A stretch of DNA of 52,643 nt. Origin: a virus. Lineage: Duplodnaviria; Heunggongvirae; Uroviricota; Caudoviricetes; Crassvirales. Below, piece by piece: positions 17,816 to 37,455 of this stretch. The stretch spans positions 72,322 through 124,964 of IMG/VR virus record IMGVR_UViG_3300027816_000067. One strand, 5' to 3'. Position numbers and translations under genes: made by a program. Positions within the stretch are counted from its first letter, which is position 1. Every line of letters begins with the position of its first letter. The notes under the pieces were generated by a model that was given only the letters and a program-made list of their open reading frames with translations, was not told where the DNA came from and did no database searches.

Positions 17816-18255
17816 ATACCGATTAATAATTCAAAAATTTTAATTATACAATTAACAACTGGTACTGTAATCGGTTTATTAAATTTTTTAATTTTTGTAA
17901 ATAATAAACCTATATTTCTTATTGTATTGTCCAATAAGTTATTACCCAGATGAAAAATTCTAGAAAAAGATAGTCTTTCTCTTTGATATGCTACACTAAT
18001 ATTTAATAATATATCAAAAAGGACATGATATATTAATAAAATAGAAAGAAGTAATAGTAAGCTTGTTACTGTTACTCCATAAGTCCTAATTAGTAAAATA
18101 CTAGGAATAATTACACGTAATATTGCATCATATGTATGCCATAGCCTCTGAAATTTTTTATCAGAAGAAATACCATATCTAATAAGCAAACTTTCGTTAG
18201 CTATATTATATATCAGTAAAACTAATACAATTAATATGATTAAATCACTTGTCAT
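17791..18255 (-). CDS. Multi-pass membrane protein of the lysis cluster
   Basis: About 4 hydrophobic segments; WH...FD.LLN pattern. Confidence 0.5.
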   Translation of the reverse strand: MTSDLIILIVLVLLIYNIANESLLIRYGISSDKKFQRLWHTYDAILRVIIPSILLIRTYGVTVTSLLLLLSILLIYHVLFDILLNISVAYQRERLSFSRIFHLGNNLLDNTIRNIGLLFTKIKKFNKPITVPVVNCIIKIFELLIGIWLWKIYV

Positions 18256-18798: not shown

Positions 18799-19305
18799 TT
18801 AAACTAATTTATCCCAAGTAAAATGATCTTTAGGAACTTTAAAAAACATATCTTTAGCTTCTAATCTAAATTCCCAATGCCATCTTTCACTAGGAACTGT
18901 TCTTACTAATTTATTGTATCTAAAAGCATTTTTAACTAACCATTCATAAGAAGGTAGTGTTCCACCTTTAGGATTAGTTACATTAAAATCATAAGCTATA
19001 CCTGGACCATGATTAGAAAAACCAGGTCTTCCTGTTTCAGGATTAAATAATTTAGGACTTGCAGTTTTAAGATAAATAATGTCATTAACTTTTGTTTTAT
19101 CAATAACATTCCTTTTTCTTAAATCCAACTGTTCAATAGGAGTTCTAATACCTTTTGCAATAGATATATCTACACTATTTTTCTTAGCATCTGCTATTAA
19201 GCTTCTAAGAATAGGAGCATAAATTTTAAGTACTTTGGCGTTTCCAATGTACTCATATTCTGCCATTCCTATACTCTTACCATCTTTCCACAATTCTATC
19301 ATCAT
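18799..19305 (-). CDS. Endolysin, peptidase M15B/C (VanY-like) Zn-peptidase
   Basis: GIRT..EQ, SNHGPGIAYD (SxHxxGxAxD) and ERWH (ExWH) motifs. Confidence 0.85.
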   Translation of the reverse strand: MMIELWKDGKSIGMAEYEYIGNAKVLKIYAPILRSLIADAKKNSVDISIAKGIRTPIEQLDLRKRNVIDKTKVNDIIYLKTASPKLFNPETGRPGFSNHGPGIAYDFNVTNPKGGTLPSYEWLVKNAFRYNKLVRTVPSERWHWEFRLEAKDMFFKVPKDHFTWDKLV

Positions 19306-19733
19306 ACTGGTAACTCTCCATTTGCCTGACGAATTAAAATAACTTCTCTTAAAATACCCCTTGCTAAATCATCTAAACAATCTCCATTACCAACTCCCGG
19401 AAATGTATTAAGTATTTTAGACTCAAAATAAAAAGCTAAAGTTATAGCATTAGGATCAACAGTATCATCCGACAAATAAAGTCTTGTTGTAGAAGATATT
19501 TTACGTTGATTTATCATAAAAGTTTCTTCATAACTTTCTACAGCTTTTCGGGCGCGTTGAGTAGTTCCATTAGGAATTGCATCAGTTGTTTCATCAGTCT
19601 CTTTTAATGTTACAAGATATTGCACAAAAAGAGGATAACCGTCTCGTCCTATTGGCGCAGCAGTCAATTCTAGTATCATTCTTTTTCCTGTAACAGCATC
19701 ATTATTTGTCACTTTAAATTTAACTTGTGCCAT
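19302..19733 (-). CDS. Hypothetical protein (possible fibre-associated)
   Basis: 143-aa ORF, ATGA overlap with endolysin. Confidence 0.55.
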   Translation of the reverse strand: MAQVKFKVTNNDAVTGKRMILELTAAPIGRDGYPLFVQYLVTLKETDETTDAIPNGTTQRARKAVESYEETFMINQRKISSTTRLYLSDDTVDPNAITLAFYFESKILNTFPGVGNGDCLDDLARGILREVILIRQANGELPV

Positions 19734-22045: not shown

Positions 22046-24907
22046 TTAAGAAGTAACTTCAACTACTAACTCAACACCTATATGATTTGCAGCAGTATTA
22101 GAAGAAACTTCTAATTCAAAATAATCGTTTTCTACAACTGTAGTATCCCAACCTGTTAAAGTAAACCCGTTGTTTGTTCTAGAAGCACTTAACGATGGCT
22201 GAACGGAACCAGTTATATCTACTCCATTTTTTCTAACTCTTAAAGTTGCTGTTGTACTCACATCAGCTAAAGCTTTCCATCTCACAATTCTACCAGCATA
22301 AGGAGAAATAATAATAGTTCTTACTTTTGTACCCGTAGTAACTACTCCTGACTCTCCTGCAATGACTGTAATTATCTTCTCATTCTTTAAAGAATAAATA
22401 CTACCGCTAGGACTTCTCCATTGCCAATTTCCTGCATTAATATAAGTAAATATACCTCCAGTTGGGTTTCCTGTAGGTGCAGTTAATACATTTGCAATAT
22501 ATAAACCACGCTCCATTGACTGCCAAGTCACGGATGTTGTTAACAATCCTATGTTCCCATCTAATCCACTTCCTGCTTTATTACCGTAACTTAAATAAAG
22601 ATCTCCACCATTATTATTTCCGCTTTGAGCATTTCCAGAACGAATTGTAAGATTTTGCCCAACCGCTAGATTACTAGAAGAGTAAATTTCTCTATTGGCG
22701 CTTAAAATAATCCCTGTAAAAGAATTAAGTGATCCTCCGCTTATCAAAACTAATTTAGAGACAGTGTTGAAAAATAACCAGTTATTAATAACAACTTGAT
22801 TTTCCGAATTTAAATGTAGGTTAGCATTAAATAAATTATTACTTGCAGAAATAGTTCTATCACCAGCAAAGGTAGAATCTCCCAATTTTAAGGTTGTAGT
22901 TTGTAATCCTATTGATGCTCCTCCTTTTGGGGAAAGCAATAACGGCACCGCTCCAGCGCTACCATCAGTTACTATTGATCTTGTAGAGCCTGCAACAAGT
23001 GTATTATCTCCTAAAGTAATATCTCCATTGGCAGCACTAAATAATTTTCTACCAATGGCATTAGTGCCATTACTTACCATTAGTTCGTTACTTACTGCAC
23101 TGTTGGTTATTCCACCACCTGCACCTAACCCAACCCAAGCACCATTCTGTCTAAACCTGAATGTGTTAGATGTGGTGTTATACATGATCAACCCATTAAC
23201 CGGACTTGAATCATCTACTGTGTTAGTGCCTACTACAAGAGAGCCATTATTACCTGTTGCAAAAGTTTGGCGGCCAGTAAACGTTTTGGCACTAAGAACG
23301 TAACCTCTATCGACTAAACTTCTGTCGGTGTAGTTAGCTGAATAATCATTTCCATATTTTAACCCTCCCTGTCCAACGTTACCGGCTTCTCCAAAAAAAA
23401 CTTCTTCAACCGCTTCCTGGTTAAACACTCGGAACCTTCCTCCTCCTCCCAAACCATCCCCCGCATTAAAAGTAATTTCGTAGCCACTATAGTCGATAGA
23501 CGTGTTAGAATTAAGACTACCCGTCAACCACCCATTCAAATCACTTCTGCTCGCAGTCTCCTGCCATACTGTACCGTTATGCCAGTTAGGTCTATTACTT
23601 GTTGTTGAATGTATTTGTAAACCACTATAAGGACTTCCAATAGCATTACGTTGGGTATCTGTCATTCGCGGCAAAGCGAAACCCTGTGTGGTGGATTGGA
23701 TGTCGAGAATGGTATTGGCATTGGTTAGCGAAGTGCCTCCGATCAACATAGAGCCTGAAGTATTTCGCCATGCGATGTGAGTTGCGCCTGTAAGAGACGT
23801 CAGTGTTGGGTTATAGTCAATGCCGTTGATTGTCCCGCTGTAGCTTGCTGTAGTATTATAGGTTGGATTCAGCTGCAAATGCGTATGCGTATTCGTACCG
23901 GAATTTCTTGTAAATCCTCCTTTGGTGCGGATAAATACACCTGAGTTGACTCCACCTATATTTGTGTCAGAAGTCGTCTCCCGTATCTCCATCGCAGCAC
24001 CACCAGTAGGTATTGATGAAAGATCAAAGCGAAATGGATTTGTTGCCCCCGCAATAGAATTTATTTGGCCCACATTAATATTTGATCCACCTCCTCCGCC
24101 AATAAGTGACGACCAGCCTTGATAAGAACTTCCTATCCATGTATGCGTTGTAGCCGTTGTTGTTAAATTCAATGTACCTTCATCGTTTAGTGTTAATCGT
24201 GTTACGTTGGCGCTATTAGCCACGCGCAAACCAAAGGTCGAAGATGTAGTACCCGTACCACGGACGTCCAGCCTTGTGTTGTCTGTAATAGTGGCACCCG
24301 TGGGCCCAACCAGCAAATTCCCGTTCAGTAGATTCACATTGTTTGCGCCCAAGGCATTAGTTCCTATCGCCAGCAACGTGCCGCTGAAATCGGGCAGCGT
24401 ATAAGTACGATCGGCTGTTATGCCAGTTGCGTCAAAAGTGCGTATGAACGAACTTCCACCTGTGCCTAACCTCCAGTTCAATCGTCCGCTATTATCTGCC
24501 CAAAGCGTTGTTCGGCTTGCGGCACCCGTTGGGTTGGCGCTCTGCCAATCCATCTGCAAAAAGCCAGCGCCAGCAGTGCCGTTCACACGCAGTGATTGCA
24601 AAGTTTCAGCACCGGTAATTCCATACCCGCTAAGAGTGGTGGGGGTGCCAGTGATCTTGCTCCAAGCTAAAGAATTTAACCAAGAAGGATTGGAGTAGCT
24701 ACCAGAAAGAAGGGGAAACAAATTCTGCCACTGAGATATACTCATCTTTCTGTTAGCCCCTCCTTGTACCACAGGCACTAACTCCGTACCAGTTGGGTCA
24801 GTGGCTGCTGGCATGTCGCTTATTTTAACGCTTTGCGCACTTGCCGCAAGCGCAACAAGTAGCAAAATCAGCGCAGCGATTAAGATGGATAGTAATTCAC
24901 GTTTCAT
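22046..24907 (-). CDS. Mosaic tail fibre/spike protein with N-terminal signal peptide (953 aa)
   Basis: Gly/Thr/Asn-rich. KISDMPAATDPTGTELVPVVQGG fibre-anchor-like motif, WLNSLAWSKITGTP repeat motif, LDIQSTTQGFALPRMT..QRNAI Bacteroidota motif. GC content falls from the N- to the C-terminal part. Confidence 0.8.
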   Translation of the reverse strand: MKRELLSILIAALILLLVALAASAQSVKISDMPAATDPTGTELVPVVQGGANRKMSISQWQNLFPLLSGSYSNPSWLNSLAWSKITGTPTTLSGYGITGAETLQSLRVNGTAGAGFLQMDWQSANPTGAASRTTLWADNSGRLNWRLGTGGSSFIRTFDATGITADRTYTLPDFSGTLLAIGTNALGANNVNLLNGNLLVGPTGATITDNTRLDVRGTGTTSSTFGLRVANSANVTRLTLNDEGTLNLTTTATTHTWIGSSYQGWSSLIGGGGGSNINVGQINSIAGATNPFRFDLSSIPTGGAAMEIRETTSDTNIGGVNSGVFIRTKGGFTRNSGTNTHTHLQLNPTYNTTASYSGTINGIDYNPTLTSLTGATHIAWRNTSGSMLIGGTSLTNANTILDIQSTTQGFALPRMTDTQRNAIGSPYSGLQIHSTTSNRPNWHNGTVWQETASRSDLNGWLTGSLNSNTSIDYSGYEITFNAGDGLGGGGRFRVFNQEAVEEVFFGEAGNVGQGGLKYGNDYSANYTDRSLVDRGYVLSAKTFTGRQTFATGNNGSLVVGTNTVDDSSPVNGLIMYNTTSNTFRFRQNGAWVGLGAGGGITNSAVSNELMVSNGTNAIGRKLFSAANGDITLGDNTLVAGSTRSIVTDGSAGAVPLLLSPKGGASIGLQTTTLKLGDSTFAGDRTISASNNLFNANLHLNSENQVVINNWLFFNTVSKLVLISGGSLNSFTGIILSANREIYSSSNLAVGQNLTIRSGNAQSGNNNGGDLYLSYGNKAGSGLDGNIGLLTTSVTWQSMERGLYIANVLTAPTGNPTGGIFTYINAGNWQWRSPSGSIYSLKNEKIITVIAGESGVVTTGTKVRTIIISPYAGRIVRWKALADVSTTATLRVRKNGVDITGSVQPSLSASRTNNGFTLTGWDTTVVENDYFELEVSSNTAANHIGVELVVEVTS

Positions 24908-25173
24908 TCCGTTTCTGTTTTTTTGCTTACGATTTTTTCAGCACGGTTAAAAATTTTGTCGAAATAATTCTCGTTCATAAACAAAAGAAACAGGCCTAAA
25001 ATTAAAGGCCAAAGAGGTGTGTGCCAGTCGTAAGGTATCTCTGTTTTTAGTTCAAAGAACGCTGGCAGAATATATTTGATCGCGTACATAGTCGCGGATA
25101 TGGACATGAACACGGCTCCCAACATTGTAGTTACAGGGTTTCTTTTTGGGTTTGCATTTTCGATTAAGCTCAT
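24904..25173 (-). CDS. Holin-like 2-TM protein
   Basis: 89 aa, two hydrophobic helices, charged C-terminus. Confidence 0.5.
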   Translation of the reverse strand: MSLIENANPKRNPVTTMLGAVFMSISATMYAIKYILPAFFELKTEIPYDWHTPLWPLILGLFLLFMNENYFDKIFNRAEKIVSKKTETE

Positions 25174-25189
25174 ATAGATTTTGTTTTTA

Positions 25190-25645
25190 TTACTCTACTA
25201 AAATGTTTCCAGTGCCATCTTCAAGGCCAATAGGCGTTGTACCGTCTTCCATCAATATAAAGCCTTCCTCCGCCGAAGGTGGCGGCACAAAGATAAAAGG
25301 TATTCCGCGTCTGTAATACTTTTCTGTGCTTTGCACTCCATCAAACGCGCAAACGTAAAAGAAAAGCCCCTCAGATAAATCCTGTTCGGCCACACTTGCC
25401 GATGTTCCTTTACCTCTGTAAACAACTTGAAAGCGCGGGTTATCGTCTGCCTTTGAGTATGTAATGCCGTCAAGGGGAAAGAAATCAAACGGCTTTTTAC
25501 TGGCAACAACTAGCGACTGTTCTCCGTTGCCTTTTGTCCATGACAAAGTTTGAGTGCCTGAGTTGTATAGCACGTTGGTATCCTGCACGGTAGGGGTTAT
25601 CTCCGCGTGATTGGTTACCTGGCCATATATGTTTCCATTTCTCAA
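25190..25645 (-). CDS. Tail-associated protein with FN3/Ig-like domain
   Basis: LSWTKGNG...VVYRGKGTS...FFYVCAF pattern; C-terminal ILMEDG..IGLEDG motif typical of tail-tip proteins. Confidence 0.55.
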   Translation of the reverse strand: MRNGNIYGQVTNHAEITPTVQDTNVLYNSGTQTLSWTKGNGEQSLVVASKKPFDFFPLDGITYSKADDNPRFQVVYRGKGTSASVAEQDLSEGLFFYVCAFDGVQSTEKYYRRGIPFIFVPPPSAEEGFILMEDGTTPIGLEDGTGNILVE

Positions 25646-26088
25646 AGCAAGTTTAAATAATTTTCGTCCTTCAAAGTTAAGAAAACTGCACCAGTAAAAA
25701 ACGGGTACTTATCCGATAGCTTTTCCATCTCGTAATTTTCCTCTTTCAACCAACTTTGGTTTTGAATGAAAATCGAATTGTGCTGCAAGGCAAGTTTTAG
25801 TTTTTTGTGCTCGTAAGGCGGCATAGGTTCAACCTCCAAATGTCGCTGTGTTTTAGTCGTGCTCGAAAGTTTGTCAATACTTCCGCTGCCATCCTCCACG
25901 CTTTCGTTTTCTTCGGGGTATCGCTCCTCGTAAAATCGGGCAAAAATCCGGTGATTGAAAGCGGGCGAACCCGAATTGTAAATAATCCCGGCAAAGTCTG
26001 AATCGTTCGATACCGTTACCAATAGCGAATCCTCGTGCAAATCGCGCACGTTTTGAAGATCAGACCGAGCGATAACGACCTTTGCCAT
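25642..26088 (-). CDS. Siphovirus tail-tip protein (possibly C-terminal half of a split gene)
   Basis: MPPYEHKKLKLALQH motif recalled from Bacteroidota siphovirus tail genes; position. Confidence 0.5.
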   Translation of the reverse strand: MAKVVIARSDLQNVRDLHEDSLLVTVSNDSDFAGIIYNSGSPAFNHRIFARFYEERYPEENESVEDGSGSIDKLSSTTKTQRHLEVEPMPPYEHKKLKLALQHNSIFIQNQSWLKEENYEMEKLSDKYPFFTGAVFLTLKDENYLNLL

Positions 26089-26092
26089 ACGG

Positions 26093-26482
26093 TTAAGCCT
26101 GTACGGTTATGGTGCAACCGGTAATGTTTACGGCTGCCCCGGACGTGATTGCATCGTCATCTATAATCAAATCCGCTCCTGATTCTGCTACGGACATATC
26201 CATCACGATTAACCCGGATGAGCTTATGAAGCGGGCATATCCAGCCGTGCCGGTACCTGATGCCAGGCCTAACCAGGTTCCATTTTTTGAAATCACGCCA
26301 CCGCTGGCCGCAGTAAATGGACTTGCCGGTAGCGTAATCGTGCAAAGCAACGTGCCGGAAGCAGCATCGTTTGCCGAAGCTGGCTGAGTTCCGGTTCGAA
26401 TTTGGACAGTGCCGTTAGCAAACAGTCCGGCCTTATGGTTTGCGATTGAGTTGCGGTAGTTCGTGTTTTTTCTGTACGCCAT
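26093..26482 (-). CDS. Small virion structural protein
   Basis: IRTGTQPASANDAASGTLL...GTGTAGYARF pattern of a widespread phage structural family. Confidence 0.55.
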   Translation of the reverse strand: MAYRKNTNYRNSIANHKAGLFANGTVQIRTGTQPASANDAASGTLLCTITLPASPFTAASGGVISKNGTWLGLASGTGTAGYARFISSSGLIVMDMSVAESGADLIIDDDAITSGAAVNITGCTITVQA

Positions 26483-26505
26483 AAATTGTTTATTTAACTT
26501 TTTTT

Positions 26506-27336
26506 TTACTCTTCTATTGGAACACTCCGTTCATAAATTTCTATTGCTAAGTCATCCGTAGGCAGAAGCTCAGTGTAGTTGTAAATGATTTCCGACATGT
26601 TGTCGCCTATGTTGAATACATGGGTGTGCACAGCAGTTCCGTTTTTGTAGAATTTCACCAAACCGACATCTTGAGCAATGCCGCCATTTGATGTTTTCTG
26701 CGCCCGGCCAGTTACGTTGCCAGTGCCATCGCTTTGCAAAATACCGCTTTCGGTATCGCTTAATCCTAAGCTGGTATCTAAACTAAATGATTTAATTTCC
26801 AGGGTGTTTGTAAATCGTGACTCCCAGAATAGGAAGCTAGTAAATCCAAACAAGCTGCCAACGATGTCGTAAGGGATGGCATTAACGATAGTTCCGGCCA
26901 CGGCTTCCACTGGATCGTTTACGCCACCTGAAATATTGAATGCCGTCACGGTGTTGGTTATGGTTCCGGATACCGCTTCAATTGGGTCAACCACCCCACC
27001 GTTAATATCAAAGAACGACAGCACAATTTGAGCCCGGACGTAGGCGTTATCTACTCCAATGTCCGTCCAACGGAAACCCGTATCAAAAACGTAGATACCA
27101 TTTACAAATGATTTAGTAAAGGCCCGTGTGTGCAGCACCGTTCCGGCCTTGTCTAAAATTTCAAGCTGATAATTGAAATCGCTTGTGTCGTAAAACTGCA
27201 ATGCGATTTCATCTTCAGCGTTCCACTTTTTAAAGTAACACGCATGATCTACACCGGGCTCCGGCTTTTCGTTGTAAGTGGGAACGCCAAGCGGCCAAAA
27301 CTGAATCGGTATTGCATTTGAGATATTTATGCTCAT
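26506..27336 (-). CDS. Tail protein with internal 24-aa tandem repeat
   Basis: FDINGGVVDPIEAVSGTITNTVTA / FNISGGVNDPVEAVAGTIVNAIPY (72-nt period, ~26870-27012). Confidence 0.55.
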   Translation of the reverse strand: MSINISNAIPIQFWPLGVPTYNEKPEPGVDHACYFKKWNAEDEIALQFYDTSDFNYQLEILDKAGTVLHTRAFTKSFVNGIYVFDTGFRWTDIGVDNAYVRAQIVLSFFDINGGVVDPIEAVSGTITNTVTAFNISGGVNDPVEAVAGTIVNAIPYDIVGSLFGFTSFLFWESRFTNTLEIKSFSLDTSLGLSDTESGILQSDGTGNVTGRAQKTSNGGIAQDVGLVKFYKNGTAVHTHVFNIGDNMSEIIYNYTELLPTDDLAIEIYERSVPIEE

Positions 27337-27366
27337 GGCTCTACGTCAGTTACAGTAATATAATTC

Positions 27367-29511
27367 TCATAGTTCTTCATTGTTTCTCTGAATTAGGAGC
27401 ATGTTCGCCTTGCTTTTGAATACTGAATAGTCTAAATCTAATAGATAACAGGGAATAAATCCAGTACTTCCTCTACTAATTCCCACTGCGTTATTCTTAT
27501 TTTCATTCAGCAACTTGTACGTTTCCCAGCTCATTTCATAATTACCGACTTCCACCAAGTAAGGGTACCAAAGCCTTGGTGAACCCGTAGATGAGTAGTT
27601 TGACCGCTCATTTATTAATTCGTCAGGATTGGTAGTAGCTTCATAATCAGTAGGACGTAATCTAGTTTGAGCTAAGTTATTTCCCTCTCCTCTTCCAAAC
27701 ATGTACAACAACCCATCATAGTTGAATAAATTCCTCCACCGTTTAAAGACCCTCATCACAGTGTGGCGAAGATTGGCTCTTGCAGAGGAGTTTAAAATTC
27801 CAGTTATTGAAGCAAAGTTTTCCGCAAACTCAAGTTGCCAATTACTTCCATCCGGAATAACAGACACCAGCATCATGTCCTCATCCAATCGGTCATCCTT
27901 GCCAAACTCTAGTTTGTTCCTCCTGCTCCGCTCAATAGCCAGCCCAGCAGTTATAAAGGAACTTAAAATTTTCAAGTCTTCCCCAAAGGTAGCCGCCTGT
28001 ACATTTCGGGTCTGCTTTGTCTGAGGGTCATCAATACCTGAACTACTTTCAGCACTCCATTTCTGATAACCAATCTCCACACTATTTATAAACCTCTCTG
28101 CATCAAACCTTCGTACTATGTTTCGACAATCTGGAAAATTAACAATAACAGTAGGATTGAAAGCGTATGCCTTATCCTCAATGTAAATTTTGTCTTCACC
28201 TAAAACCTTAGTGTACCCTAAACAAAGATTGAACATCGGGTCAGCTCCTTTCCACCACTCGTCAAATGACATTGAAATCTCCTTGGTGGCGAAGTCATAA
28301 CCACGATTGTGTTTGCCTCTAAAAATTGCGTTCCTATTAAAGGTAGCGTTGCTGAATTTAGTTGATACTAGGGGAGAGTTATTGGAAGTGTACTTACGCA
28401 GTATATTATCCGCAGCATCTTTTATAAGGAATGCATCCGTGGAGGAATCTGGAAATGAGCTGTTAGTCTGAGCATATAAACGGTTTGTGCTAGCAACATC
28501 AAAATGAACTCTGTTGGTACTACCAAATGCCTCAAGATTCGAAGTCACACGGATATAAAAATAAAATTCATCTCCTGCTGAACAGTCGGTAAATGTAGGA
28601 TTGAATGAAGGTTGAAGCGCTCCGAAATTCAACCACCCACTATCATAAGGAACATTAGTCAAAACAGTATGTGGCAAAAATACTGTAGTGTGGATATCCA
28701 AGACCCCAGTTTCTATTTTTCTACGAACAATAAAAATATCAGCAGATATTGTGTCAAAGTTTTGGGGGTCTCCGACAGTAATCTTCATTCGCATTTCATT
28801 GGAGAACACCCAATCTCCTGTACTTCTGGAATTAAGTTTTAGGAAAAATAGTCTATCTGTTGTAGGAAGATTGTTACTAACTTGGTCTTCAATACCAAAA
28901 AACTCTCCAACATCATCATTTAGTTGATTGGCTGAGAGAGCAGGGATAAAATACTTAGTAGTGTTGCCTGTGTAAGTTGCCCCAAAAAAAGGAGTTGCTG
29001 AATCCCTATCTGCACGAATCTGCTTCAGCAACAGTTGACTTCGCATTTTAACAATAGTTTTCGGAACTACTGTTACAGTGCCTCCACCTACAGCTCCAGT
29101 AGATAGAAGATCAACAGGCTTCTTTATTTGGTTTATGAACTTACTCCAAAAATCATCTCGAATAACAGGTGCTACAATTTTATACTCCTGGTCTCCGGCT
29201 GAAAGTTCCTCCATCTGAATAAGTCGAATGGTTCCGGTATATAAAGTTTCCCACACCCCCTCTTCAAAAGAAATCTCGAATCTTACTCCAATTACAGTAC
29301 TGGGGCCAAATGAGTTCCTAATAGTTCTAAGAGTTTCAAAGGCCGAACCGTACCACATGAAGTTGCCTTTGAAGTGTTCAATTAGCGTGTGGTATTCCTC
29401 ATGCCGCTCAAGGGACAGAGTAATATCCTTCCACCCAGCAGGGTTGGTTACAATTTGCTGTCCTCCAGAAATACTTGGATGGATGAAGTAGGTTCTGAAT
29501 GCCGGAGTCAT
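27367..29511 (-). CDS. Distal tail / baseplate hub protein (714 aa)
   Basis: Directly downstream of tape measure; NPAGWKDITLSLER N-terminus and SVEIGYQKW...DDP pattern. Confidence 0.65.
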   Translation of the reverse strand: MTPAFRTYFIHPSISGGQQIVTNPAGWKDITLSLERHEEYHTLIEHFKGNFMWYGSAFETLRTIRNSFGPSTVIGVRFEISFEEGVWETLYTGTIRLIQMEELSAGDQEYKIVAPVIRDDFWSKFINQIKKPVDLLSTGAVGGGTVTVVPKTIVKMRSQLLLKQIRADRDSATPFFGATYTGNTTKYFIPALSANQLNDDVGEFFGIEDQVSNNLPTTDRLFFLKLNSRSTGDWVFSNEMRMKITVGDPQNFDTISADIFIVRRKIETGVLDIHTTVFLPHTVLTNVPYDSGWLNFGALQPSFNPTFTDCSAGDEFYFYIRVTSNLEAFGSTNRVHFDVASTNRLYAQTNSSFPDSSTDAFLIKDAADNILRKYTSNNSPLVSTKFSNATFNRNAIFRGKHNRGYDFATKEISMSFDEWWKGADPMFNLCLGYTKVLGEDKIYIEDKAYAFNPTVIVNFPDCRNIVRRFDAERFINSVEIGYQKWSAESSSGIDDPQTKQTRNVQAATFGEDLKILSSFITAGLAIERSRRNKLEFGKDDRLDEDMMLVSVIPDGSNWQLEFAENFASITGILNSSARANLRHTVMRVFKRWRNLFNYDGLLYMFGRGEGNNLAQTRLRPTDYEATTNPDELINERSNYSSTGSPRLWYPYLVEVGNYEMSWETYKLLNENKNNAVGISRGSTGFIPCYLLDLDYSVFKSKANMLLIQRNNEEL

Positions 29512-31781
29512 TTGCCCATTACTGATCTACGAATCAACTTTCTATTTCTGTGCTCGTCTTCCCGAACTTCATAGAGCAACGAACCTTGGCGCACTAAGCT
29601 CGGTTGAGAGGATTTGTAAGCAGCTATCAACTTTTTATTCTCCTCCCTCATTACCTTAGCCATTGTCAGCATACCAAGCTGCTCTGAGTTCATACGTTGC
29701 TCTACACCAATGCCTGAAAGCGCAAGAGCCTTGGTCTCGTCAGCAGTAAACACCTTAGAGCCTTTCTCCAAGTAAGTGAGTGAAGGCCCATTGGGAGACA
29801 AGGAGAATCTCCCAGAAGGAGTTTGAATCAACTCTGGCCCCTTCTCCCCAACAATTGCCAAACCTCCCGGTGCGAAGTCGGTACCTTTTTCGAATTTCAT
29901 TATTTGAGATCGGGCTGTAGCAAATGCAATTTTAATCAGCCCTGAGATTGCAAGGGCTCTCGCTATACCAGTAGCTCCGAAGGTAAGAACAGAATCTGGG
30001 GTAGATAAGGCTTGAGCTGTAGCCTTTGCAATGGTAGCATGCTGCACTGCCAGTAACTCCTTCTCAACCTGATTAAGTAGGAACACCAAGGCTCCTTTCG
30101 AAAGCGCCCTGATAAAATTATCATTGGACTGGAGCGCTCCCTGAATTGTAGCTACTAACTCGTTGGTCAGAGAGGTCATGTACATAGTCTCATCCATGAA
30201 CTGTTTTTTGCGCCGTTCAGACTGACTCATAAACTTTTCTGTAGTCTCCTCTCCGTATCCATTTATGACTTCTTGTACCTGCTCCTCCCAAGTCTTCAAT
30301 TCCTGTAAACGAACAAGCATTGCATCAAACTCTTCTTTCCGCTTCTTATCTTGTTCGTTTAACATCTGAGCCCGTTGCAAGTCAGCATTGATCTCGTTTT
30401 GAATTCGCTGCTCTAATTCAGCCTTCAATTTGGCAGTAAGTTCCTTAGCGTTTTTTGTTCTGGTGGCCTGTTCTTCAGCGTCAATCAATAACAACTCTTT
30501 GGATGCATCTTGGCGAATCTTTAACAACTCGGCTTCCTCGTCCTCAGTCAGCTTACGGTTTTCTTTAAAGTAAACCGCTTTGTTGCCCAGTAACCAAAGA
30601 GCAAGTGTCTTTGCTTTATTTACTTCGGCAACACCGGCCTCTCTTTGCCTATCGACACTCTTAATAATCTCCTCTTGTTTCTTGCGCTCTAGATCAAAAG
30701 TTGCCTCACCTCGTATTTGAAGCAGTCTAATTTCCAGATCGTATCTTTCTTCCATCGTTGTTCTCTCCTTAGCGTAGCGCTCAATAGCTTTTTGACTAAC
30801 TTCGTCAGCAATATCCGAAAACCACTTGAATGCAGCAGCAGCGGCAACCAATACACCCGCGACCAAGAAAATTGGATTGGAGAACAAAGCAACTCCAATG
30901 GCTTTAAAGGACTTTCCGATTCCTCCCAAGCCTTCAATAATTTCTTTGGAAGACATTCCCTTCAAACTTGCTGCTAACTGATTGGCCGAAGTGGCCGCAC
31001 CGCTCAAGTCCCCAGCTCGAAGTTGGGACCCCAATTGTTGAAAAGACCCTGCAATGTTTTCCACTCCTGAGGCTTGAGTGTTCTTCACCGCATCATTAAT
31101 ATCATTAAGTTCGTCTTTCAATTTACCGGCTCTTTGAGCAGCGGCAATAAATTCTGGACTGCCTGTACCAAGCGTTGCTGCAATTCCTGCCATCTCATCT
31201 TTAGCCGCACGTAACTCCAGCTTCAATTCCTTAGTGGCGTTTTCATATTGGCCAACCTTATCTTGGTGCTGACCCATACTTGCCTTCAAGTCTTTCACGG
31301 CTTGGTCTTGTTCTTCAATAACCTTCAATAACTCCCGACCACTATCGCTGTTTCGTTCTTGGTCACTGCGGAGTTCGCGGTAGGCATTACGATTCGCCTT
31401 GAGGGCAGCTTCCAATTCATGAAGGCTGGAAGTCTGAGCCTTAACGGACTTTGCATCCTTATCACCAAGAACAGACTTTTGTCTAGTCTCTTCCTTAACT
31501 TTTTGAAGTACTTTGATTTGATCTTGGTAAGCTTGAGTGTTTCGAGCTTCGGCAGTGGCCACTTGCTTCTGGATTTTCTCTAGCTCCATTTGAGCTAATG
31601 TTAAATCTTCAATAGCTTTCTTGTGTTTCGAGGGGCTATCTCCATTAGCAGCAGCGTTGAAACTCTTCGTTACCTCCATAAGTTTGTAGGCAGAGTTGAC
31701 GGCCTCCATCATGTTCTTGCTGAGGACTAACGGAGCGTCAATAGCTTCCTGGGATAGAATGTCTTGTTTTTGAATACTCAT
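29508..31781 (-). CDS. Tape measure protein
   Basis: Long Ala/Lys/Glu-rich helical protein, central TM-like segment, C-terminal FEKGTDFAPGGLAIVGEKGPELI motif. Confidence 0.85.
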   Translation of the reverse strand: MSIQKQDILSQEAIDAPLVLSKNMMEAVNSAYKLMEVTKSFNAAANGDSPSKHKKAIEDLTLAQMELEKIQKQVATAEARNTQAYQDQIKVLQKVKEETRQKSVLGDKDAKSVKAQTSSLHELEAALKANRNAYRELRSDQERNSDSGRELLKVIEEQDQAVKDLKASMGQHQDKVGQYENATKELKLELRAAKDEMAGIAATLGTGSPEFIAAAQRAGKLKDELNDINDAVKNTQASGVENIAGSFQQLGSQLRAGDLSGAATSANQLAASLKGMSSKEIIEGLGGIGKSFKAIGVALFSNPIFLVAGVLVAAAAAFKWFSDIADEVSQKAIERYAKERTTMEERYDLEIRLLQIRGEATFDLERKKQEEIIKSVDRQREAGVAEVNKAKTLALWLLGNKAVYFKENRKLTEDEEAELLKIRQDASKELLLIDAEEQATRTKNAKELTAKLKAELEQRIQNEINADLQRAQMLNEQDKKRKEEFDAMLVRLQELKTWEEQVQEVINGYGEETTEKFMSQSERRKKQFMDETMYMTSLTNELVATIQGALQSNDNFIRALSKGALVFLLNQVEKELLAVQHATIAKATAQALSTPDSVLTFGATGIARALAISGLIKIAFATARSQIMKFEKGTDFAPGGLAIVGEKGPELIQTPSGRFSLSPNGPSLTYLEKGSKVFTADETKALALSGIGVEQRMNSEQLGMLTMAKVMREENKKLIAAYKSSQPSLVRQGSLLYEVREDEHRNRKLIRRSVMGK

Positions 31782-32434
31782 TTTCCTTTGGGCTCAGACC
31801 GTTTCTTTATAATCTTTTTGTACTCGTTGTACCTTGCAAGAGTAATGTCGTCAGGGACTGTGAAACCTAATTGTACACATAAGGTAGCCATCAACTCTTC
31901 GAAGGTAATGGCGTTTTCAGATTCCCCCTTAAAGTTAGCTACCTCAGATTGTAGCATACGAATACGCGTGGTGAGTTCGGACGAACGTCTTACTAACTCA
32001 GAAAGAGCTGCGTCATACTCCTCTGTATTGGAGTATGAAAATTTATAACCACGGGCAGTGAGATCGGAAATAATTTGTTGATCTACTTTAAAAGCAAGTA
32101 TAATGATGGCAGTTCGGATTAAGGTGTACTCAGCCACTACTTTTTCGTAAGCCTTCAACGTGCGAATGTAGTGGTAAAACTGATTGTTATTTGAACTGGT
32201 ACTGTTCTTCTTAATAATCTCCTCCCAAGTATTCACAAGAACCTCCTGAGGTGGATTACCACTCACCACTAACTGCTTGTATTCTTGAGTCTCCGCTATT
32301 TGCATAAAGACTTTTAATGGTATTTTAGAGTAGTCAAATATTTTCCAAGATGGCTTTGGAGACTTCCGGGAGAACAATCTGTTGCGCCACTCTTTCAGTG
32401 TTGACTTTATCCGTTCCAAAAATCTCTTCACCAT
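31778..32434 (-). CDS. Tail assembly chaperone-like protein
   Basis: Immediately upstream of TMP, helical; true start may be downstream (100-nt overlap with previous gene). Confidence 0.5.
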   Translation of the reverse strand: MVKRFLERIKSTLKEWRNRLFSRKSPKPSWKIFDYSKIPLKVFMQIAETQEYKQLVVSGNPPQEVLVNTWEEIIKKNSTSSNNNQFYHYIRTLKAYEKVVAEYTLIRTAIIILAFKVDQQIISDLTARGYKFSYSNTEEYDAALSELVRRSSELTTRIRMLQSEVANFKGESENAITFEELMATLCVQLGFTVPDDITLARYNEYKKIIKKRSEPKGK

Positions 32435-32747
32435 ACTTCGCTTTTAGTTCTGTAGTCTTCTCGTCTCTCGAATCAAATAATACCGAGAACTCATCTGCTT
32501 TCAGGTACATTGCATTGTAAAAGTCACCGGTCAATTTCAGGTCTACTGTAATTCGACCTTTCATGTTTGCGTACGCAATACTGGCATACTCTCCCAATGG
32601 TTCCCCCTCCCGATCAAAGGAGTCTTGAAGCTGCTCTCTGTTAAAGTCCAATACGGCTTGCTCATTCTGTCTTAGAGCCTGAAGCGCGACACGCTCCAGG
32701 TCTAAGGCAGCTAAATTAACAGCAGCTTGTTTTAGCTTCTCAAGCAT
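32334..32747 (-). CDS. Neck/tail-completion-type protein
   Basis: DLKLTGDFY...KYGEEIFG motifs; between major tail and chaperone genes. Confidence 0.5.
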   Translation of the reverse strand: MLEKLKQAAVNLAALDLERVALQALRQNEQAVLDFNREQLQDSFDREGEPLGEYASIAYANMKGRITVDLKLTGDFYNAMYLKADEFSVLFDSRDEKTTELKAKYGEEIFGTDKVNTERVAQQIVLPEVSKAILENI

Positions 32748-33634
32748 TAAGACACATCCAGTGTGGCCGAAGTCAGTACCTCAAACGCTGTCACGGTCAG
32801 CAACGAAGCATCTCGAAGCGTCACAGTACCGTCAACGAAATTGCCCGTACGGACTACGTTGTACACCCCTGAGCCAACGGAAGTTTCCGTTACTGAGGTA
32901 GGATTCTGTGCACCTCCAGCGGCTGTGAAGGCAAGGAAATCTGCCAGCAGTAATCCACTAACAGGAGTGCCGTCACACTTCGAGCGTACCGTAGCAGTGA
33001 AAGAGCCTGCAAGAACACTGCTGAGAATGATTTCCGCGTCAGTCAATGGAATCAACTCACCAACAAAGTCGGCAGGGATCATCAACCCACGATCGTCAAT
33101 CTCGTTGTGGTCTTTCAGTACAAAATACACCGGGCTCTTGGTCGCAACACTTCCATCGCTGATAATCAACTTCTCAACGTTGATAAGACTGGTACGGAAA
33201 CCAGCGCCATCTCCGTTGGACAGCTCCGTCATAAAGAAGTTGTTGTTCAAATCAAAGAAAATCACACGGTCGTCAGAGCCGGAGTGGCTGAACATAGCTT
33301 TGTGCAGACACAGATTCTTGGAGATGTGTGCACGAAAACGATACTTGCCCTGACGGACACGAATGTCAGTCAGTGGAGTTTCTTCGTACACCACCTCTTC
33401 ACTCACAGCCTCGCAATTCGAGAAGGTAGGCCACAAGTAAATACGGGAAGCAAGACCAGCCTTGAGCGCATTCTGAAGAAACGTCTTCAGTGCGGCAGGG
33501 TTAGCCAACGTTGCAGCCGGGATACTGAAATTGGCAGGAGTCGTGATGGCTCCAGCAAACAGACCGGGCAACTTGTTACACTTACTGGCACCAAGGTTTT
33601 GCTTAGGGTCAGTAGAACAGATTATTTCTGCCAT
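32747..33634 (-). CDS. Major tail tube protein with C-terminal Ig-like domain
   Basis: N-terminal Cys motif (CSTDPKQNLGASKC), position after neck genes, beta-rich C-terminal extension. Confidence 0.7.
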   Translation of the reverse strand: MAEIICSTDPKQNLGASKCNKLPGLFAGAITTPANFSIPAATLANPAALKTFLQNALKAGLASRIYLWPTFSNCEAVSEEVVYEETPLTDIRVRQGKYRFRAHISKNLCLHKAMFSHSGSDDRVIFFDLNNNFFMTELSNGDGAGFRTSLINVEKLIISDGSVATKSPVYFVLKDHNEIDDRGLMIPADFVGELIPLTDAEIILSSVLAGSFTATVRSKCDGTPVSGLLLADFLAFTAAGGAQNPTSVTETSVGSGVYNVVRTGNFVDGTVTLRDASLLTVTAFEVLTSATLDVS

Positions 33635-33640
33635 AATTTT

Positions 33641-34177
33641 TTAACAGTTAGTTTCTTTTTGGTTAATTCTCAAATTCACAATTTCGATTGCATCAATTGG
33701 ATCGCTAAAAACCTGACGCTGAGCCGCTTTTTTATTGTTCAATGTTTCTTCGGGTGTGCCCCAAAAGTAACGGTTGATAGACGTGTGTTCTGGGCGTTGC
33801 AAATTGCCGCTCCACATAAACAAACCCGAACGTTTGAGGGCTACAAAAAATCGTTCGTACAGCGGAAACAATGTTGGTTTGAACACCCGCGTTAATCGCT
33901 CCTCTGCGTTCAGGTTCTTTTCAGTGGCCGCAATAATGGCAAGGTTAAGGCTATATCGCAGCATGTCGCCATCACGCTCAGGTGTGGTGGGCAACCGCAA
34001 AACAATTAGCGGAAACCTTTTATTGTACCTTGCCGGGCTTTTGGCCATTGCAACTATGCGCTCGTTAACTTCGGCAACGTGACCAAACATGTAGTAAGGC
34101 GCATCCTCTGCGGCATCTCCGTTCAGCGTTCGCATTAACTGCACTACGGTTCCGATATCATCCTCGATGATTCTCAT
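33641..34177 (-). CDS. Tail terminator / head-tail joining protein
   Basis: YYMFGHVAEV...KRFPLIVL...FKPTLFPLYERF pattern; synteny. Confidence 0.55.
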   Translation of the reverse strand: MRIIEDDIGTVVQLMRTLNGDAAEDAPYYMFGHVAEVNERIVAMAKSPARYNKRFPLIVLRLPTTPERDGDMLRYSLNLAIIAATEKNLNAEERLTRVFKPTLFPLYERFFVALKRSGLFMWSGNLQRPEHTSINRYFWGTPEETLNNKKAAQRQVFSDPIDAIEIVNLRINQKETNC

Positions 34178-34899
34178 AAACCGAAGGCGTTAATGTATTC
34201 CGGGTAACAGAATTTGTCTGCCAGGTATTCGCGGAAGTCGGTGTACCCTTTACTTGTTACCAGGTCATTAAAGTCCTCATAATTTTCGTAAAGGTAACCA
34301 TATAGCGAATCTTGGTTTTCGTTGGCAGATGGATATTGGTCATCGTACAACACGCCGATAAGTTCCGCGAATCGATTGTACCCCGCAACAATCATCGGAG
34401 TAGGGTTTACAATAGTGGCATTTTCTGCGGCACTTATTACCGCACCAGACCCGGTAATGCTATGCGCGTATTCACGCAAGTATTCAGCATGTAGGTACGG
34501 CACAATTGCCTCGTTAAAGCCTAACCATTGTTGTTCGAATCCGCTCCAGTTATACGTGGTGCCTTTTTTTAAGACCAGCCATCGGTCGACAGGTTGCAGC
34601 GTCCAGCCAATTAAAGTATCGGGCACGTTTTGATTATTGTTGATAGTCGATTGATAAATCGATAATCCATAAACCACGCGATCACCTATACTGTAGTGTG
34701 GATGCGGCGTTGTCGTCCATTCAGCAGGCAAGGCTTCAACGCCAGATTTTAAAGCGTTCCAAAAAATCAGCCCTAAAGTCTTTTGTAATATCTCTTTTTC
34801 TTTACGAGTAAAGAACGCAGTGAGGCCACTATCGCTATCAGGCGATTGGCGCACCGTGTAAGGAGGCGCAACAAAATCCGTTAGGGCTGTGAATAGCAT
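34174..34899 (-). CDS. Head-tail connector (adaptor) protein
   Basis: Second gene after MCP; EKEILQKTLG, YLHAEYLR, INAFGL C-terminus. Confidence 0.55.
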   Translation of the reverse strand: MLFTALTDFVAPPYTVRQSPDSDSGLTAFFTRKEKEILQKTLGLIFWNALKSGVEALPAEWTTTPHPHYSIGDRVVYGLSIYQSTINNNQNVPDTLIGWTLQPVDRWLVLKKGTTYNWSGFEQQWLGFNEAIVPYLHAEYLREYAHSITGSGAVISAAENATIVNPTPMIVAGYNRFAELIGVLYDDQYPSANENQDSLYGYLYENYEDFNDLVTSKGYTDFREYLADKFCYPEYINAFGL

Positions 34900-34912
34900 C
34901 GAATTGTTTTTT

Positions 34913-35362
34913 TTACTGCCGCATAAAATAAGCCTGAGCCGTGAACGTGGCGTTCATGGTACCAGTTCCCGTCCAGCTCACGCGGTAAAACGGAAACGGA
35001 CTACCGTTAATGCGCCAGTGATAGGCAGCAGTAGCGTCAGCAGCGGTAATCGTTGGCAGAGCGGTTTGCGTTTCAATGGTTCGCAATGCAACAAAACTTG
35101 TCCCATCCAGCGAGCCAAGTAGCGTAATAGTGCCACCAACCGTACCGGATACTTTCGTAACGTTTACCTGTACGACCGTATAGCTTGCACGTTCTTGCAG
35201 CAATCGCGGAGTAGTCAGAAACGCAGTACCGGTATTTACAACGGTTTCAAAAAGTGCCGATGTGCCGGACACCAAGTTAACCGTCTGGCCATTCGAAGGC
35301 GCAGCAATAATCGCGAACAAGGCTACCAAGCCCACGATCAGGAAATTGAATTTAGTTTTCAT
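34913..35362 (-). CDS. Capsid-adjacent beta protein (possible head decoration) with signal peptide
   Basis: MKTKFNFLIVGLVALFAIIAAPSNG-Q signal peptide; TITLLGSLDG...FYRVSWTGTGT beta-sandwich; directly after MCP. Confidence 0.55.
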   Translation of the reverse strand: MKTKFNFLIVGLVALFAIIAAPSNGQTVNLVSGTSALFETVVNTGTAFLTTPRLLQERASYTVVQVNVTKVSGTVGGTITLLGSLDGTSFVALRTIETQTALPTITAADATAAYHWRINGSPFPFYRVSWTGTGTMNATFTAQAYFMRQ

Positions 35363-35396: not shown

Positions 35397-36635
35397 TTAG
35401 TCAAGCAATGCAATAGCAGCAGGAATGTCAGTCACTTTTGCAAATGCATTCAGGTCAACGTTACGAACGAGTAACGCAGTACGCTTACGCGCCTTAATCG
35501 TCATCATATCGTTGATGAATTGGTTTGCGATGAATCCCATTTCAACCTCAATTCCACCAGCGGTAAACTGAGTGGCCCAATTAAAGTCACCCACCAGCAT
35601 TTCGTTTACTCCAGGCAAGGCATGAGGAATCACGCGAACGCCATTTACATTAGCGGTTCCATCTGGTAAGAATTGCACAAATTGCGGGTTCAGGTAATGA
35701 CCGTCAACGGCTTTTTTAATCAGCATCTCGTTGAAGCGAGCGTAAGAAATAATCGCGGTGCTTGCGCGGAATTTCGATTCCCGGCCAGCGTTAATTTGCT
35801 CGGCCACTTTTACGATTAGGTCAAACAAGTTCGGCTCATCCAGTTGCAAATCAGGCGCTACATACGTTGGCGCGTACGTAAGGATACCGGTAATGTTTGG
35901 AGCAATACCATTGGCATTCCACAAATCAGCATCTTCACGCAAGCCAACGTTAACTTGTAACAGTTGTTCAATTTCGCCAGCGATGTAGTCAACATCGTTA
36001 AAGGCTTCCATTGACACCGGCACTTGGTCGCCAATTTTTTGCAGCGACAAAGTGTACTCTTGCCACGGAAAGGTAGATTCCGGGAAAGCGTTATTTTCAG
36101 CAACGGACGCAGCCGCGCGGGTAGGTGCCGATTGATCCACATAACGAACAATCCCGTTTGAGTTAGGCGCAATCGGGCGTTGACGGAACAAAGATGAAAG
36201 CGTAAAACTACGATATGCCACTTGGCCAATGTCATCCAAGCGCATTGCCTGCGTGGTGTTGGTAACGGACGAGCGGAGTACCGGCGCTTTGGTAACGGGC
36301 ACCTCAATTTTGAAAGACGTTTTCTCGCCCTTCGCAATGCGCCCCATCACATCTTTCTTTTCTTCGATCAATTCGGCCACAGACTTGTCTTTGTTGCCGC
36401 CTTTGCCGGTCAGTATCTTGTTGATTTCAAGCCCTTGAGCCTCTACGGCTTTCGTCAGCTTTTCAATTGCATCGGCTTTAACACCCGCTTTTTCAAGGGT
36501 TTCGGTAAGTTTTTCGGTTGTTACCAAGCCTTCCGTAGCCTTTTTGATTTCATTCTTCACGGCCTCAATTTGGCTGCCGTGTTCTTTTCCGAGCTTTTGG
36601 ATTAGCTCCTGAATTTCTTTCACTTCGATTTCCAT
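35397..36635 (-). CDS. HK97-fold major capsid protein
   Basis: N-terminal coiled-coil delta domain, AASVAENNAFPES, KIGDQVPVSME, LVGDF, FINDMMTIKARKR motifs. Confidence 0.92.
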   Translation of the reverse strand: MEIEVKEIQELIQKLGKEHGSQIEAVKNEIKKATEGLVTTEKLTETLEKAGVKADAIEKLTKAVEAQGLEINKILTGKGGNKDKSVAELIEEKKDVMGRIAKGEKTSFKIEVPVTKAPVLRSSVTNTTQAMRLDDIGQVAYRSFTLSSLFRQRPIAPNSNGIVRYVDQSAPTRAAASVAENNAFPESTFPWQEYTLSLQKIGDQVPVSMEAFNDVDYIAGEIEQLLQVNVGLREDADLWNANGIAPNITGILTYAPTYVAPDLQLDEPNLFDLIVKVAEQINAGRESKFRASTAIISYARFNEMLIKKAVDGHYLNPQFVQFLPDGTANVNGVRVIPHALPGVNEMLVGDFNWATQFTAGGIEVEMGFIANQFINDMMTIKARKRTALLVRNVDLNAFAKVTDIPAAIALLD

Positions 36636-36648
36636 TTTTTTGATGGTT

Positions 36649-37455
36649 TTAGTTTATAATTGATTTGCGATACACGTCCACCAAATCATTTACGTTCAGA
36701 GTGGTTTTTACCGGCTCAGTTTTTTCAGTGGGTTTACCCGGCTGAATTTTATTGTTCAATGTTGGTGTAAGTACGTTTGATCCTAACAATACAGCAGACA
36801 CTTCGATTAGTTTTGCTTCACGCACGGCAAAGAAAAATCCGGCTTCTTCTGCTTCCTCTTTGTTGCCGAGTGATGGGAACACTTCTTCCCAGGTTTCATA
36901 CTCGGATTTGTAGTTGTCATCATTTGCGGCCAATTCAATCTTGGTGTAAATCATTCCTACCGAATGTTGATCTACCGCATCGTCTTTGTATTCCTCGTAA
37001 ACCTTTTTGTTGAGCCTGGCTTCGATTTGGCTTTCCATAAGTAATACAACCGTATCACCGTTTTTAGGATGGCCAAGCGCCCGCCACTTCATCCCGACTT
37101 CGGCAAAGGAAAGCGGGCGGCCAACCTTTGCCGCAAGTTGAAACTTATGATCGTGCAGGTGTGGGATGCGCGTGCCGCGTTCCTGAATTGATTTTGCAAA
37201 TATGCCATTTAAGTGTACGTCTCCATGACTGTCTAACCAATTGTAAGTGTTGGAAACAATAGTCCGTTTCAATATGCCTTTTTCCTCATCGTTCTCATAA
37301 AGGTATCGGCCCTTTGTAACGGATGGCTCAAACGACTTATTAGGCAGCAGCGTAATCGCATCGGCAATTTTCATTTTTTGCGTTGCCAAGCGGAAGTCTT
37401 TTTCCGCGATTAGCCGCTGATATGTGGCCTTGTCAATGCGTGTTTTCATTTGCAA
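36649..37455 (-). CDS. HK97-family prohead protease
   Basis: DSHGDVHLNGIF, HLHDH, HSVGM, LIEVSAVLLGSN motifs; between portal and MCP. Confidence 0.88.
   Translation of the reverse strand: MQMKTRIDKATYQRLIAEKDFRLATQKMKIADAITLLPNKSFEPSVTKGRYLYENDEEKGILKRTIVSNTYNWLDSHGDVHLNGIFAKSIQERGTRIPHLHDHKFQLAAKVGRPLSFAEVGMKWRALGHPKNGDTVVLLMESQIEARLNKKVYEEYKDDAVDQHSVGMIYTKIELAANDDNYKSEYETWEEVFPSLGNKEEAEEAGFFFAVREAKLIEVSAVLLGSNVLTPTLNNKIQPGKPTEKTEPVKTTLNVNDLVDVYRKSIIN

Follow-up and report, generated by a model that had tools for sequence, protein, structure and literature searches.

Bacteroidota-type Q-rule leaders on the tail fibre and a post-capsid jelly-roll protein of a metagenomic siphovirus: a possible periplasmic route to the particle

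Why would a tailed phage place secretion leaders on proteins encoded among its structural genes? This question is raised by a window of 52,643 nucleotides, that is, the whole stretch of DNA analysed here, which forms the last 52.6 kb of the 124,964-bp IMG/VR record IMGVR_UViG_3300027816_000067 (rated 91% complete). Two of its genes are at issue: a tail fibre open reading frame (ORF), designated P0001, and the gene that follows the major capsid gene, designated P0002. A first-pass annotation had described both products as virion-type proteins carrying signal peptides of the general secretion (Sec) pathway that follow the Bacteroidota Q-rule, with Gln at position +1 after the cut. It had suggested either export followed by addition to the particle or display on the infected cell. 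Assembly of tailed phages is, according to textbooks, wholly cytoplasmic. Both genes belong to a siphovirus with a GC (guanine plus cytosine) content of ~45%, which is joined in the record to a second phage of low GC content.

Both N-termini read as that annotation had quoted them: a basic n-region, a hydrophobic core, and a small-x-small site with Gln at +1 (Q25 in the fibre, Q26 in P0002). A crude leader rule, applied to window ORFs of at least 80 amino acids (aa), detected a leader plus Gln in the fibre, P0002, and one small protein of the low-GC phage only. Leader calls throughout this work rest on our own heuristic and on conservation, not on SignalP. The small number of ORFs singled out and the cut-site statistics given below place the two leaders beyond chance. 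Neither is a start-codon artefact; judged by these comparisons, they are genuine, conserved leaders of the Bacteroidota Q-rule type. A probable false leader also occurs in the window (41823-42863, minus strand), where the longest reading of a ParB-like/DNA methyltransferase ORF opens with a hydrophobic stretch. The family match of this ORF starts at residue ~23-40, and its true start is probably an internal Met.

The post-capsid protein has 251 near-length homologues, and a profile search with P0002 yielded 992 clusters at 50% identity. Among the 148 best cluster representatives, the heuristic found an N-terminal leader plus Gln in 105 and the same segment in an internal position, still ending in A↓Q (the arrow marks the predicted cut), in 28; the remainder were mostly truncated sequences, or heuristic misses that also show A-Q. 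For the cut-site count, the hydrophobic segment and the core motif served as two independent anchors, which left 207 usable sequences. Gln was present between both anchors in 207 of 207, Ala occupied position -1 in 77%, and A, S, V or T occupied position -3 in 77%. The entropy at -1 was 1.3 bits versus 3-3.6 bits in the flanks, so that A↓Q forms an island within a variable leader. This pattern suggests selection on the cut site and no such constraint on the remainder of the leader. The first-pass annotation had named predominantly leaderless homologues as evidence that would speak against its proposal. Nearly all members of the P0002 family are leader-bearing; for the fibre, leaderless forms prevail only at long range, among distant relatives.

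In the 28 long forms, the internal segment stands behind a conserved hydrophilic domain of 50-100 aa, for which no match was found in Pfam, PHROGs or NCBIfam. This domain displays a Y-H ... G ... A ... G-W pattern (P0018, P0079, P0086 and 35 others) and, by eye, resembles the small post-capsid proteins gp078 and gp079 of Cellulophaga phage phi10:1. The long forms may be fusions of two neighbouring genes. Another feature of the family is D-T-V, a Bacteroidota O-glycosylation motif, which occurs at one fixed site near the mature start in 112 of 120 post-capsid homologues; P0002 itself has E-T-V there (residues 39-41).

The fibre ORF of the window is a composite. Residues 1 to ~618 of P0001 represent the siphovirus fibre, and residues ~619-953 (~22046-23100, GC ~33%) are the C-terminus of the low-GC phage fibre; the GC content inside the ORF drops accordingly from ~45% to ~33%. 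A protein of 864 aa, P0124, found on 10 contigs of up to 36.5 kb, combines residues 1-618 of P0001 with the C-terminus of the other fibre of the record, P0126 (100% match from residue 558). On this comparison, the true siphovirus fibre is an 864-aa protein with the same leader and N-terminal anchor as in P0001. The leader, anchor and shaft are unaffected by the join. The C-terminal third of the ORF belongs to the leaderless fibre of the second phage.

The composite nature of the ORF agrees with the organization of the record. The GC content is ~45% at contig positions 1-6 kb and 96-125 kb and 26-35% between them, and separate terminase, portal and capsid genes are present in the low-GC block. 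The sole long repeat in the record is direct, 1,139 bp long and 96.3% identical, with an exact core of 701 bp. Its spacing (Table 1) agrees with the sizes of two independent low-GC phage contigs, 90,119 bp (ending inside the repeat) and 90,373 bp. This agreement and the P0124 comparison define the natural units as a siphovirus of ~35 kb and a low-GC phage of ~90.5 kb. The geometry of the repeat and the protein comparisons indicate that the record traverses two phage genomes in a figure-eight or is a physically equivalent cointegrate. Both fibre ORFs of the record are reciprocal hybrids joined at the 1.1-kb direct repeat. The same P0001 hybrid occurs, with 98.4% identity, on a 3.8-kb contig elsewhere, and real fibre recombinants may therefore exist. 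Since they trade fibre parts, the siphovirus and the low-GC phage probably have the same host. No near DNA match to the window was found in the phage collection.

The fibre gene closes the siphovirus tail module at its distal end, following the genes for the tape measure and the tail-tip proteins, which is the position of a fibre. The order of tape measure, 714-aa virion protein and, further on, fibre was also observed in L018 and L050. The same type of leader precedes the same anchor motif in P0128, P0133, P0143, P0144, P0149, L018 and L050; the motif lies at residues 3-8 of the leaderless fibres P0175, P0182 and P0195 and is also present in leaderless IMG/VR fibres of 1,000-2,300 aa. Leader-bearing homologues of the fibre and of its partner protein likewise show Gln at +1. 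Of 33 IMG/VR fibres with the shaft repeat, 25 are leaderless, 5 possess a leader plus Gln and 2 possess another leader. The annotated tail fibre of Leeuwenhoekiella phage Arctus_1 has a stretch matching the repeat motif (49% over 65 aa), and fibre homologues bear collagen, S74-chaperone and pectate-lyase domains, with PF26696 also listed for them; the fibre itself gave no match in Pfam, PHROGs or NCBIfam. By its place in the tail module and by the anchor and shaft common to recognised fibres, the window protein is evidently a true tail-fibre homologue. For P0002, the label 'virion-type' is inferential.

Closely related proteins with and without leaders occur in the two co-assembled phages. The low-GC phage fibre is leaderless, and 421 shaft residues are 94% identical to those of the leader-bearing siphovirus fibre. 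The region that follows the true siphovirus fibre downstream (contig 1-4.2 kb) encodes two proteins with leader plus Gln (509 and 160 aa) and three small membrane proteins; the leader-bearing proteins have no match in Pfam, PHROGs or NCBIfam. The 160-aa protein (contig 1619-2101) is 66% identical to a 143-aa partner protein in the low-GC phage. Since the start codon of this partner is immediately preceded by a stop codon, a hidden leader is impossible there. This partner family comprises ~10 leaderless and 4-5 leader-bearing members, and in the alignment, residue 3 of the leaderless members coincides with the cut predicted for the leader-bearing ones. The predicted fold of the 143-aa partner family (predicted local distance difference test score, pLDDT, 78.5) gave no structural match above Z 4.3.

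The 276-aa protein of the tail-tip region shows a comparable situation: its homologues carry a lipoprotein-type leader (L-x-x-C) in L018, L032, L034, L050 and L051 and none in L056, L060 and L067, with a conserved motif directly behind the leader. The leader, on these alignments, is a module added precisely at the start of a domain and gained or lost between close relatives and between phages that trade fibres. The near-identical shaft and the partner protein, both leaderless in the co-assembled phage, point to a common job done on the particle or extracellularly rather than within a single compartment; a function independent of export would most simply be exerted after release, in one of these two places. 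This weakens, for the fibre set, the suggestion of the first-pass annotation that such proteins are displayed on the infected cell and mask receptors. The gene directly upstream of the fibre encodes an 89-aa protein with two hydrophobic helices. It adjoins a leader-bearing fibre also in L050, and a homologue lies at the same place in L034. No family match was obtained for this protein, which may be either holin-like or a membrane partner.

P0002 starts 34 nt past the stop of the capsid gene and ends 13 nt before the next gene, and no promoter or terminator signal above chance was found around it. In ~60 of 80 related viral contigs, the gene adjoins that for the capsid protein, arranged as terminase, portal, protease, capsid, P0002 homologue, connectors; the succession of capsid and P0002 genes was also seen in L105. 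Several related phages have two tandem copies of P0002 type, both leader-bearing. The homologues are common to phages with capsid proteins just 22-28% identical, while the low-GC phage has none. Only one weak match was obtained in 400 Bacteroidota genomes, which argues against a function in lysogeny or in prophages. The lack of signals of its own and the operon position characterize P0002 as a late-operon gene rather than a moron, and, given also its constant place in ~60 contigs and its near-absence from the bacterial genomes, an accessory gene of the superinfection-exclusion type (T5 Llp, lambda Bor) was rejected. A Q-rule leader-bearing homologue was also identified after a capsid-type gene of the uncultured 'Rhodobacteraceae phage LS06-2018-MD05' (L089, OP947161.1, 4839-5252), which hints at a Bacteroidota host for that phage rather than Rhodobacteraceae.

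No Pfam, PHROG or NCBIfam match was found for P0002. Its AlphaFold model (pLDDT 87.8) is all-beta after an N-terminal helix, and the mature part forms a jelly-roll. The list of structural matches is flat, with Z values from 9.7 to 8.1 over 24 chains. At its top stands XepA of PBSX (6i56; Z 9.7, root-mean-square deviation 2.7, 103 residues aligned), followed by the N-domain of PNGase F (Z 9.3), the cement protein of BPP-1 (3j4u_H; Z 8.5), YomS of SPbeta (6i5o; Z 8.4) and the cement protein of KHP40 (7dou; Z 8.1); Carin1 (8cjz_B) gave Z 7.4. Many sugar-binding modules also score about Z 8, and Foldseek returned generic jelly-roll matches only. Clusters of P0002 look-alikes are 86-100% viral and unnamed; in one of them, 15% of the members carry DUF6385. 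The conserved residues Y114, H115, W116, R127 and W130 of P0002 are aromatic or polar.

The cement proteins of BPP-1, KHP40 and Carin1 resemble P0002 in having a jelly-roll fold, a size of ~125-140 aa and a gene adjacent to that of the capsid protein (104-109 residues aligned). Unlike P0002, they carry no leader for secretion, and their binding takes place in the cytoplasm; they are 6-16% identical to it in sequence, Z values of this size are usual for any jelly-roll, and the P0002 family outconserves its capsid protein. XepA and YomS are likewise phage-encoded and, moreover, linked to the cell envelope, but they originate from Gram-positive elements, belong to lysis cassettes and share no sequence similarity with P0002, and the match is not clear of unrelated jelly-rolls. 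A role of P0002 as a jelly-roll decoration of the capsid is, on our estimate, less likely than not.

The closest parallels to the leaders of the fibre region are found in phages of Cellulophaga baltica. Proteins gp091-gp094 of phage phi10:1 (KC821618) all possess a leader ending in A↓Q or G↓Q and are annotated as 'structural protein' with experimental support from tandem mass spectrometry (MS/MS). The pectate lyase gp095 of this phage has a leader plus Gln as well, and small membrane proteins and a glycosyl hydrolase follow. Podovirus phi46:3 (KC821622) encodes five such leader-bearing proteins, gp079-gp083, annotated by similarity. Thus, at least one cultured Bacteroidota phage has leader-bearing fibre-region proteins in its purified particles, according to records that report MS/MS detection and are silent on the state of the N-terminus; no publication discussing these leaders was found. 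As in the window siphovirus, the leaders of the fibre region end in A↓Q, G↓Q or S↓Q in these phages, and small membrane proteins and a lysin are encoded next; phi10:1 is likewise a siphovirus with an HK97-type head module and the same type of host phylum. In contrast, their proteins have no detectable sequence similarity to the window fibre, and neither phi10:1 nor phi46:3 has a leader-bearing gene beside the capsid gene. Proteins gp093 of phi10:1 (L094) and gp080 of phi46:3 (L151) have the same leader and first ~50 residues despite belonging to a siphovirus and a podovirus, respectively; this exchange of modules across morphotypes is of the same kind as that between the two phages of the record.

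The Q-rule and its stabilising role have been described (PMC10653852; Bochtler 2018, as cited in PMC10367356). Five ORFs of unknown function that obey this rule were reported in Porphyromonas gingivalis phages (PMC10367356). That study concludes that phages use the general secretion route of the host and views the ORFs as possible modifiers of the host surface. They have the same leader architecture as the two window proteins, with Gln at +1, but the study does not link them to fibres or to the capsid gene. A literature search on secretion leaders of tail fibres or capsid-adjacent proteins, pyroglutamate in virions, and leaders in crAss001 retrieved nothing relevant beyond that paper.

The following route would account for these observations. 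The 45%-GC late operon would produce at least two substrates of the host Sec machinery and signal peptidase I, the 864-aa fibre and the 124-aa jelly-roll, both translocated late in infection. Cuts at ASA↓Q and SNG↓Q would expose an N-terminal Gln, which host glutaminyl cyclase would cyclise. The mature proteins would fold and accumulate in the periplasm during the assembly of heads and tails in the cytoplasm. Lysis would merge the two compartments, and the fibre would dock on the tail tip through the anchor motif that starts right past the cut; the jelly-roll would either bind the capsid as a late decoration or stay a free sugar-binding factor.

The steps of this route differ in strength. Export of both proteins is highly probable. 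That the fibre ends up on the particle is slightly favoured, by analogy with the MS/MS annotation of phi10:1. For Sec export followed by joining at lysis, the sequence data leave the chances about even: it is plausible for the fibre and open for P0002. A general periplasmic assembly arm in Bacteroidota tailed phages, through which an exported, pyroglutamate-capped set of fibre proteins and a capsid-side jelly-roll join the particle at lysis, is a speculative reading that we hold to be less probable than its opposite. The export-dependent maturation route proposed at the outset is thus partly upheld, namely in the conserved leaders, in a fibre homologue whose anchor stands just past the cut, and in the MS/MS-detected proteins of phi10:1; docking and the decoration role of P0002 are hypothetical.

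Several points weigh against the proposed route. The phage and the P0002 family are known from sequence and models alone, and tblastn searches with P0002, a divergent homologue and the LS06 protein revealed no relative in a cultured phage. The assignment to a host phylum rests on the Q-rule itself and on identical fragments, two short contigs, binned in a Flammeovirgaceae metagenome-assembled genome; other relatives were binned with unrelated phyla. Detection by mass spectrometry in virion preparations shows neither removal of the leader nor attachment as opposed to co-purification, and docking after lysis must overcome dilution. The O-glycosylation motif is not enriched (2 in the fibre versus 3.25 expected, none in P0002), and neither protein contains cysteine, so that there is no obvious need for maturation in the periplasm. 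Finally, P0002 is conserved more strongly than any other protein of the module: pairwise identities have a median of 54.9% in its family, compared with 45.4% in the portal and 36.1% in the capsid protein, and in 94% of 960 contig pairs the P0002 homologue exceeds the capsid protein in identity, figures somewhat inflated by the choice of contigs through the P0002 homologue. Such conservation would suit a conserved host target better than a capsid surface.

The last point leads to the most substantial alternative, in which both proteins are exported but never join the particle and act instead on the envelope of the infected cell or on its debris. The jelly-roll, for which this is most relevant, might mask or bind a conserved surface or periplasmic glycan, help to break the outer membrane, or keep progeny off lysed cells. 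Its conservation across phages with highly dissimilar capsid proteins would be explained, and the five conserved aromatic and polar residues would, in the model, suit a ligand site; the gene, on the other hand, lies beside the capsid gene within the late operon and not in the lysis cassette. Sugar-binding modules and the exported lysis-cassette proteins XepA and YomS are among the best structural matches of P0002, but the same flat list also holds the cement proteins of BPP-1 and KHP40. The near-absence of homologues from Bacteroidota genomes speaks against a role in lysogeny. For the fibre and its partner, the leaderless, near-identical homologues of the other phage make a job tied to the periplasm less likely, and the fibre has retained a virion-docking anchor. 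Taken over both proteins, we consider this alternative less likely than the proposed route.

Two further explanations question export or the leaders themselves. The hydrophobic N-termini could be uncut anchors in the inner membrane, with assembly at the membrane or removal of the segment by a phage protease. The long forms of the P0002 family, with their internal segment behind a hydrophilic domain in 28 of 148 representatives, do have the look of type II membrane proteins, and the two-helix membrane protein of 89 aa is translationally coupled to the fibre. However, the small-x-small site followed by Gln is the most conserved feature of the leader, in the long forms as well, as expected only if signal peptidase I cuts; in addition, leaderless homologues begin at the predicted cut point. 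Uncut anchors are therefore improbable. An artefact of annotation or assembly, such as wrong starts or leaders born of the chimeric join, was also considered, as the contig is a join of two phages with a hybrid fibre ORF and the ORF at 41823-42863 probably has a false start. Yet the leader-bearing end of the fibre is 600 bp from the repeat, on the siphovirus side, and recurs on the 10 independent P0124 contigs; in P0002, no other Met could serve as a start upstream of residue ~136, and the leader is seen again in hundreds of assemblies. This recurrence makes an artefact extremely improbable. As to type IX secretion, no C-terminal sorting domain was matched in NCBIfam or Pfam (E <= 1) in P0001, P0124, P0002 or the two downstream leader-bearing proteins.

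If the proposed route through the periplasm is correct, part of the particle or of the late programme of this phage would be routed through the envelope by means of leaders on the receptor-binding fibre and on a capsid-linked protein, and the post-capsid family of ~1,000 clusters would provide the first known case of a capsid accessory protein that reaches the particle through the periplasm. The results also bear on the exchange of host-range modules, since leader-bearing and leaderless versions swap here between unrelated phages, on the expression of such fibres for engineering, and on the annotation of metagenomic phages, for which a Q-rule leader may serve as a marker of the host phylum. 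The post-capsid family is large, virus-only and unnamed, and it is amenable to testing because its mature domain is a small soluble jelly-roll. What appears new here is the size, constancy and conservation of this family, the existence within it of long forms whose cut site is internal, the natural pairs with and without leader between co-assembled phages, and the recognition of the fibre ORF as a junction product.

The structural genes of the window are all located on the minus strand, and the late operon of the siphovirus extends from 22 kb to ~43 kb with a GC content of ~45% (Table 1).

Table 1. Features of the window and of the two-phage join (window positions unless stated otherwise).
Feature	Position	Strand	Remarks
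Large terminase	39536-40954	-	
Portal	37884-39368	-	
Prohead protease	36649-37455	-	
Major capsid protein	35397-36635	-	phrog_10 major head protein, E 4.8e-24; directly upstream of P0002
P0002, 149-aa post-capsid gene	34913-35362	-	mature part, residues 26-149
P0002 signal peptide (predicted)	35288-35362	-	residues 1-25; predicted cut SNG↓Q
Connector and tail genes	between P0002 and tape measure	-	
Tape measure	29508-31781	-	PHROG match
714-aa virion structural protein	27367-29511	-	PHROG match
276-aa tail-tip-region protein	26506-27336	-	leaderless in the window
Four small genes	between 714-aa gene and 89-aa gene	-	
89-aa protein with two hydrophobic helices	24904-25173	-	stop overlaps fibre start
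P0001, 953-aa fibre ORF	22046-24907	-	junction ORF
Fibre signal peptide (predicted)	24836-24907	-	residues 1-24; predicted cut ASA↓Q
Fibre N-terminal anchor motif	24725-24835	-	begins 3 residues past the predicted cut
Fibre shaft segment common to low-GC phage	23097-24235	-	equals the repeat at the join
Exact 701-bp repeat core	23187-23887		inside the fibre shaft segment
Repeat copies	contig 4944-6082 and 95418-96556 (= window 23097-24235)		spacing 90,474 bp
143-aa low-GC phage partner protein	19302-19733	-	leaderless homologue of the 160-aa siphovirus protein

A few further observations were made outside the late operon. The low-GC part of the window begins with an open-ended ORF of at least 2,210 aa (1-6630, minus strand) that has no PHROG match; ORFs of 670, 694 and 1,264 aa follow, with a match to a virion structural family in the 1,264-aa ORF only. 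The small leader-bearing protein of the low-GC phage (124 aa, leader plus Gln, cut after Y-S) is encoded in the region 16414-18255 on the minus strand. It sits among three small proteins with hydrophobic N-termini, and this group may be the lysis cassette of the low-GC phage. The siphovirus endolysin (phrog_894) is encoded at 46476-46946 on the plus strand, among replication genes and far from the membrane proteins adjacent to the fibre.

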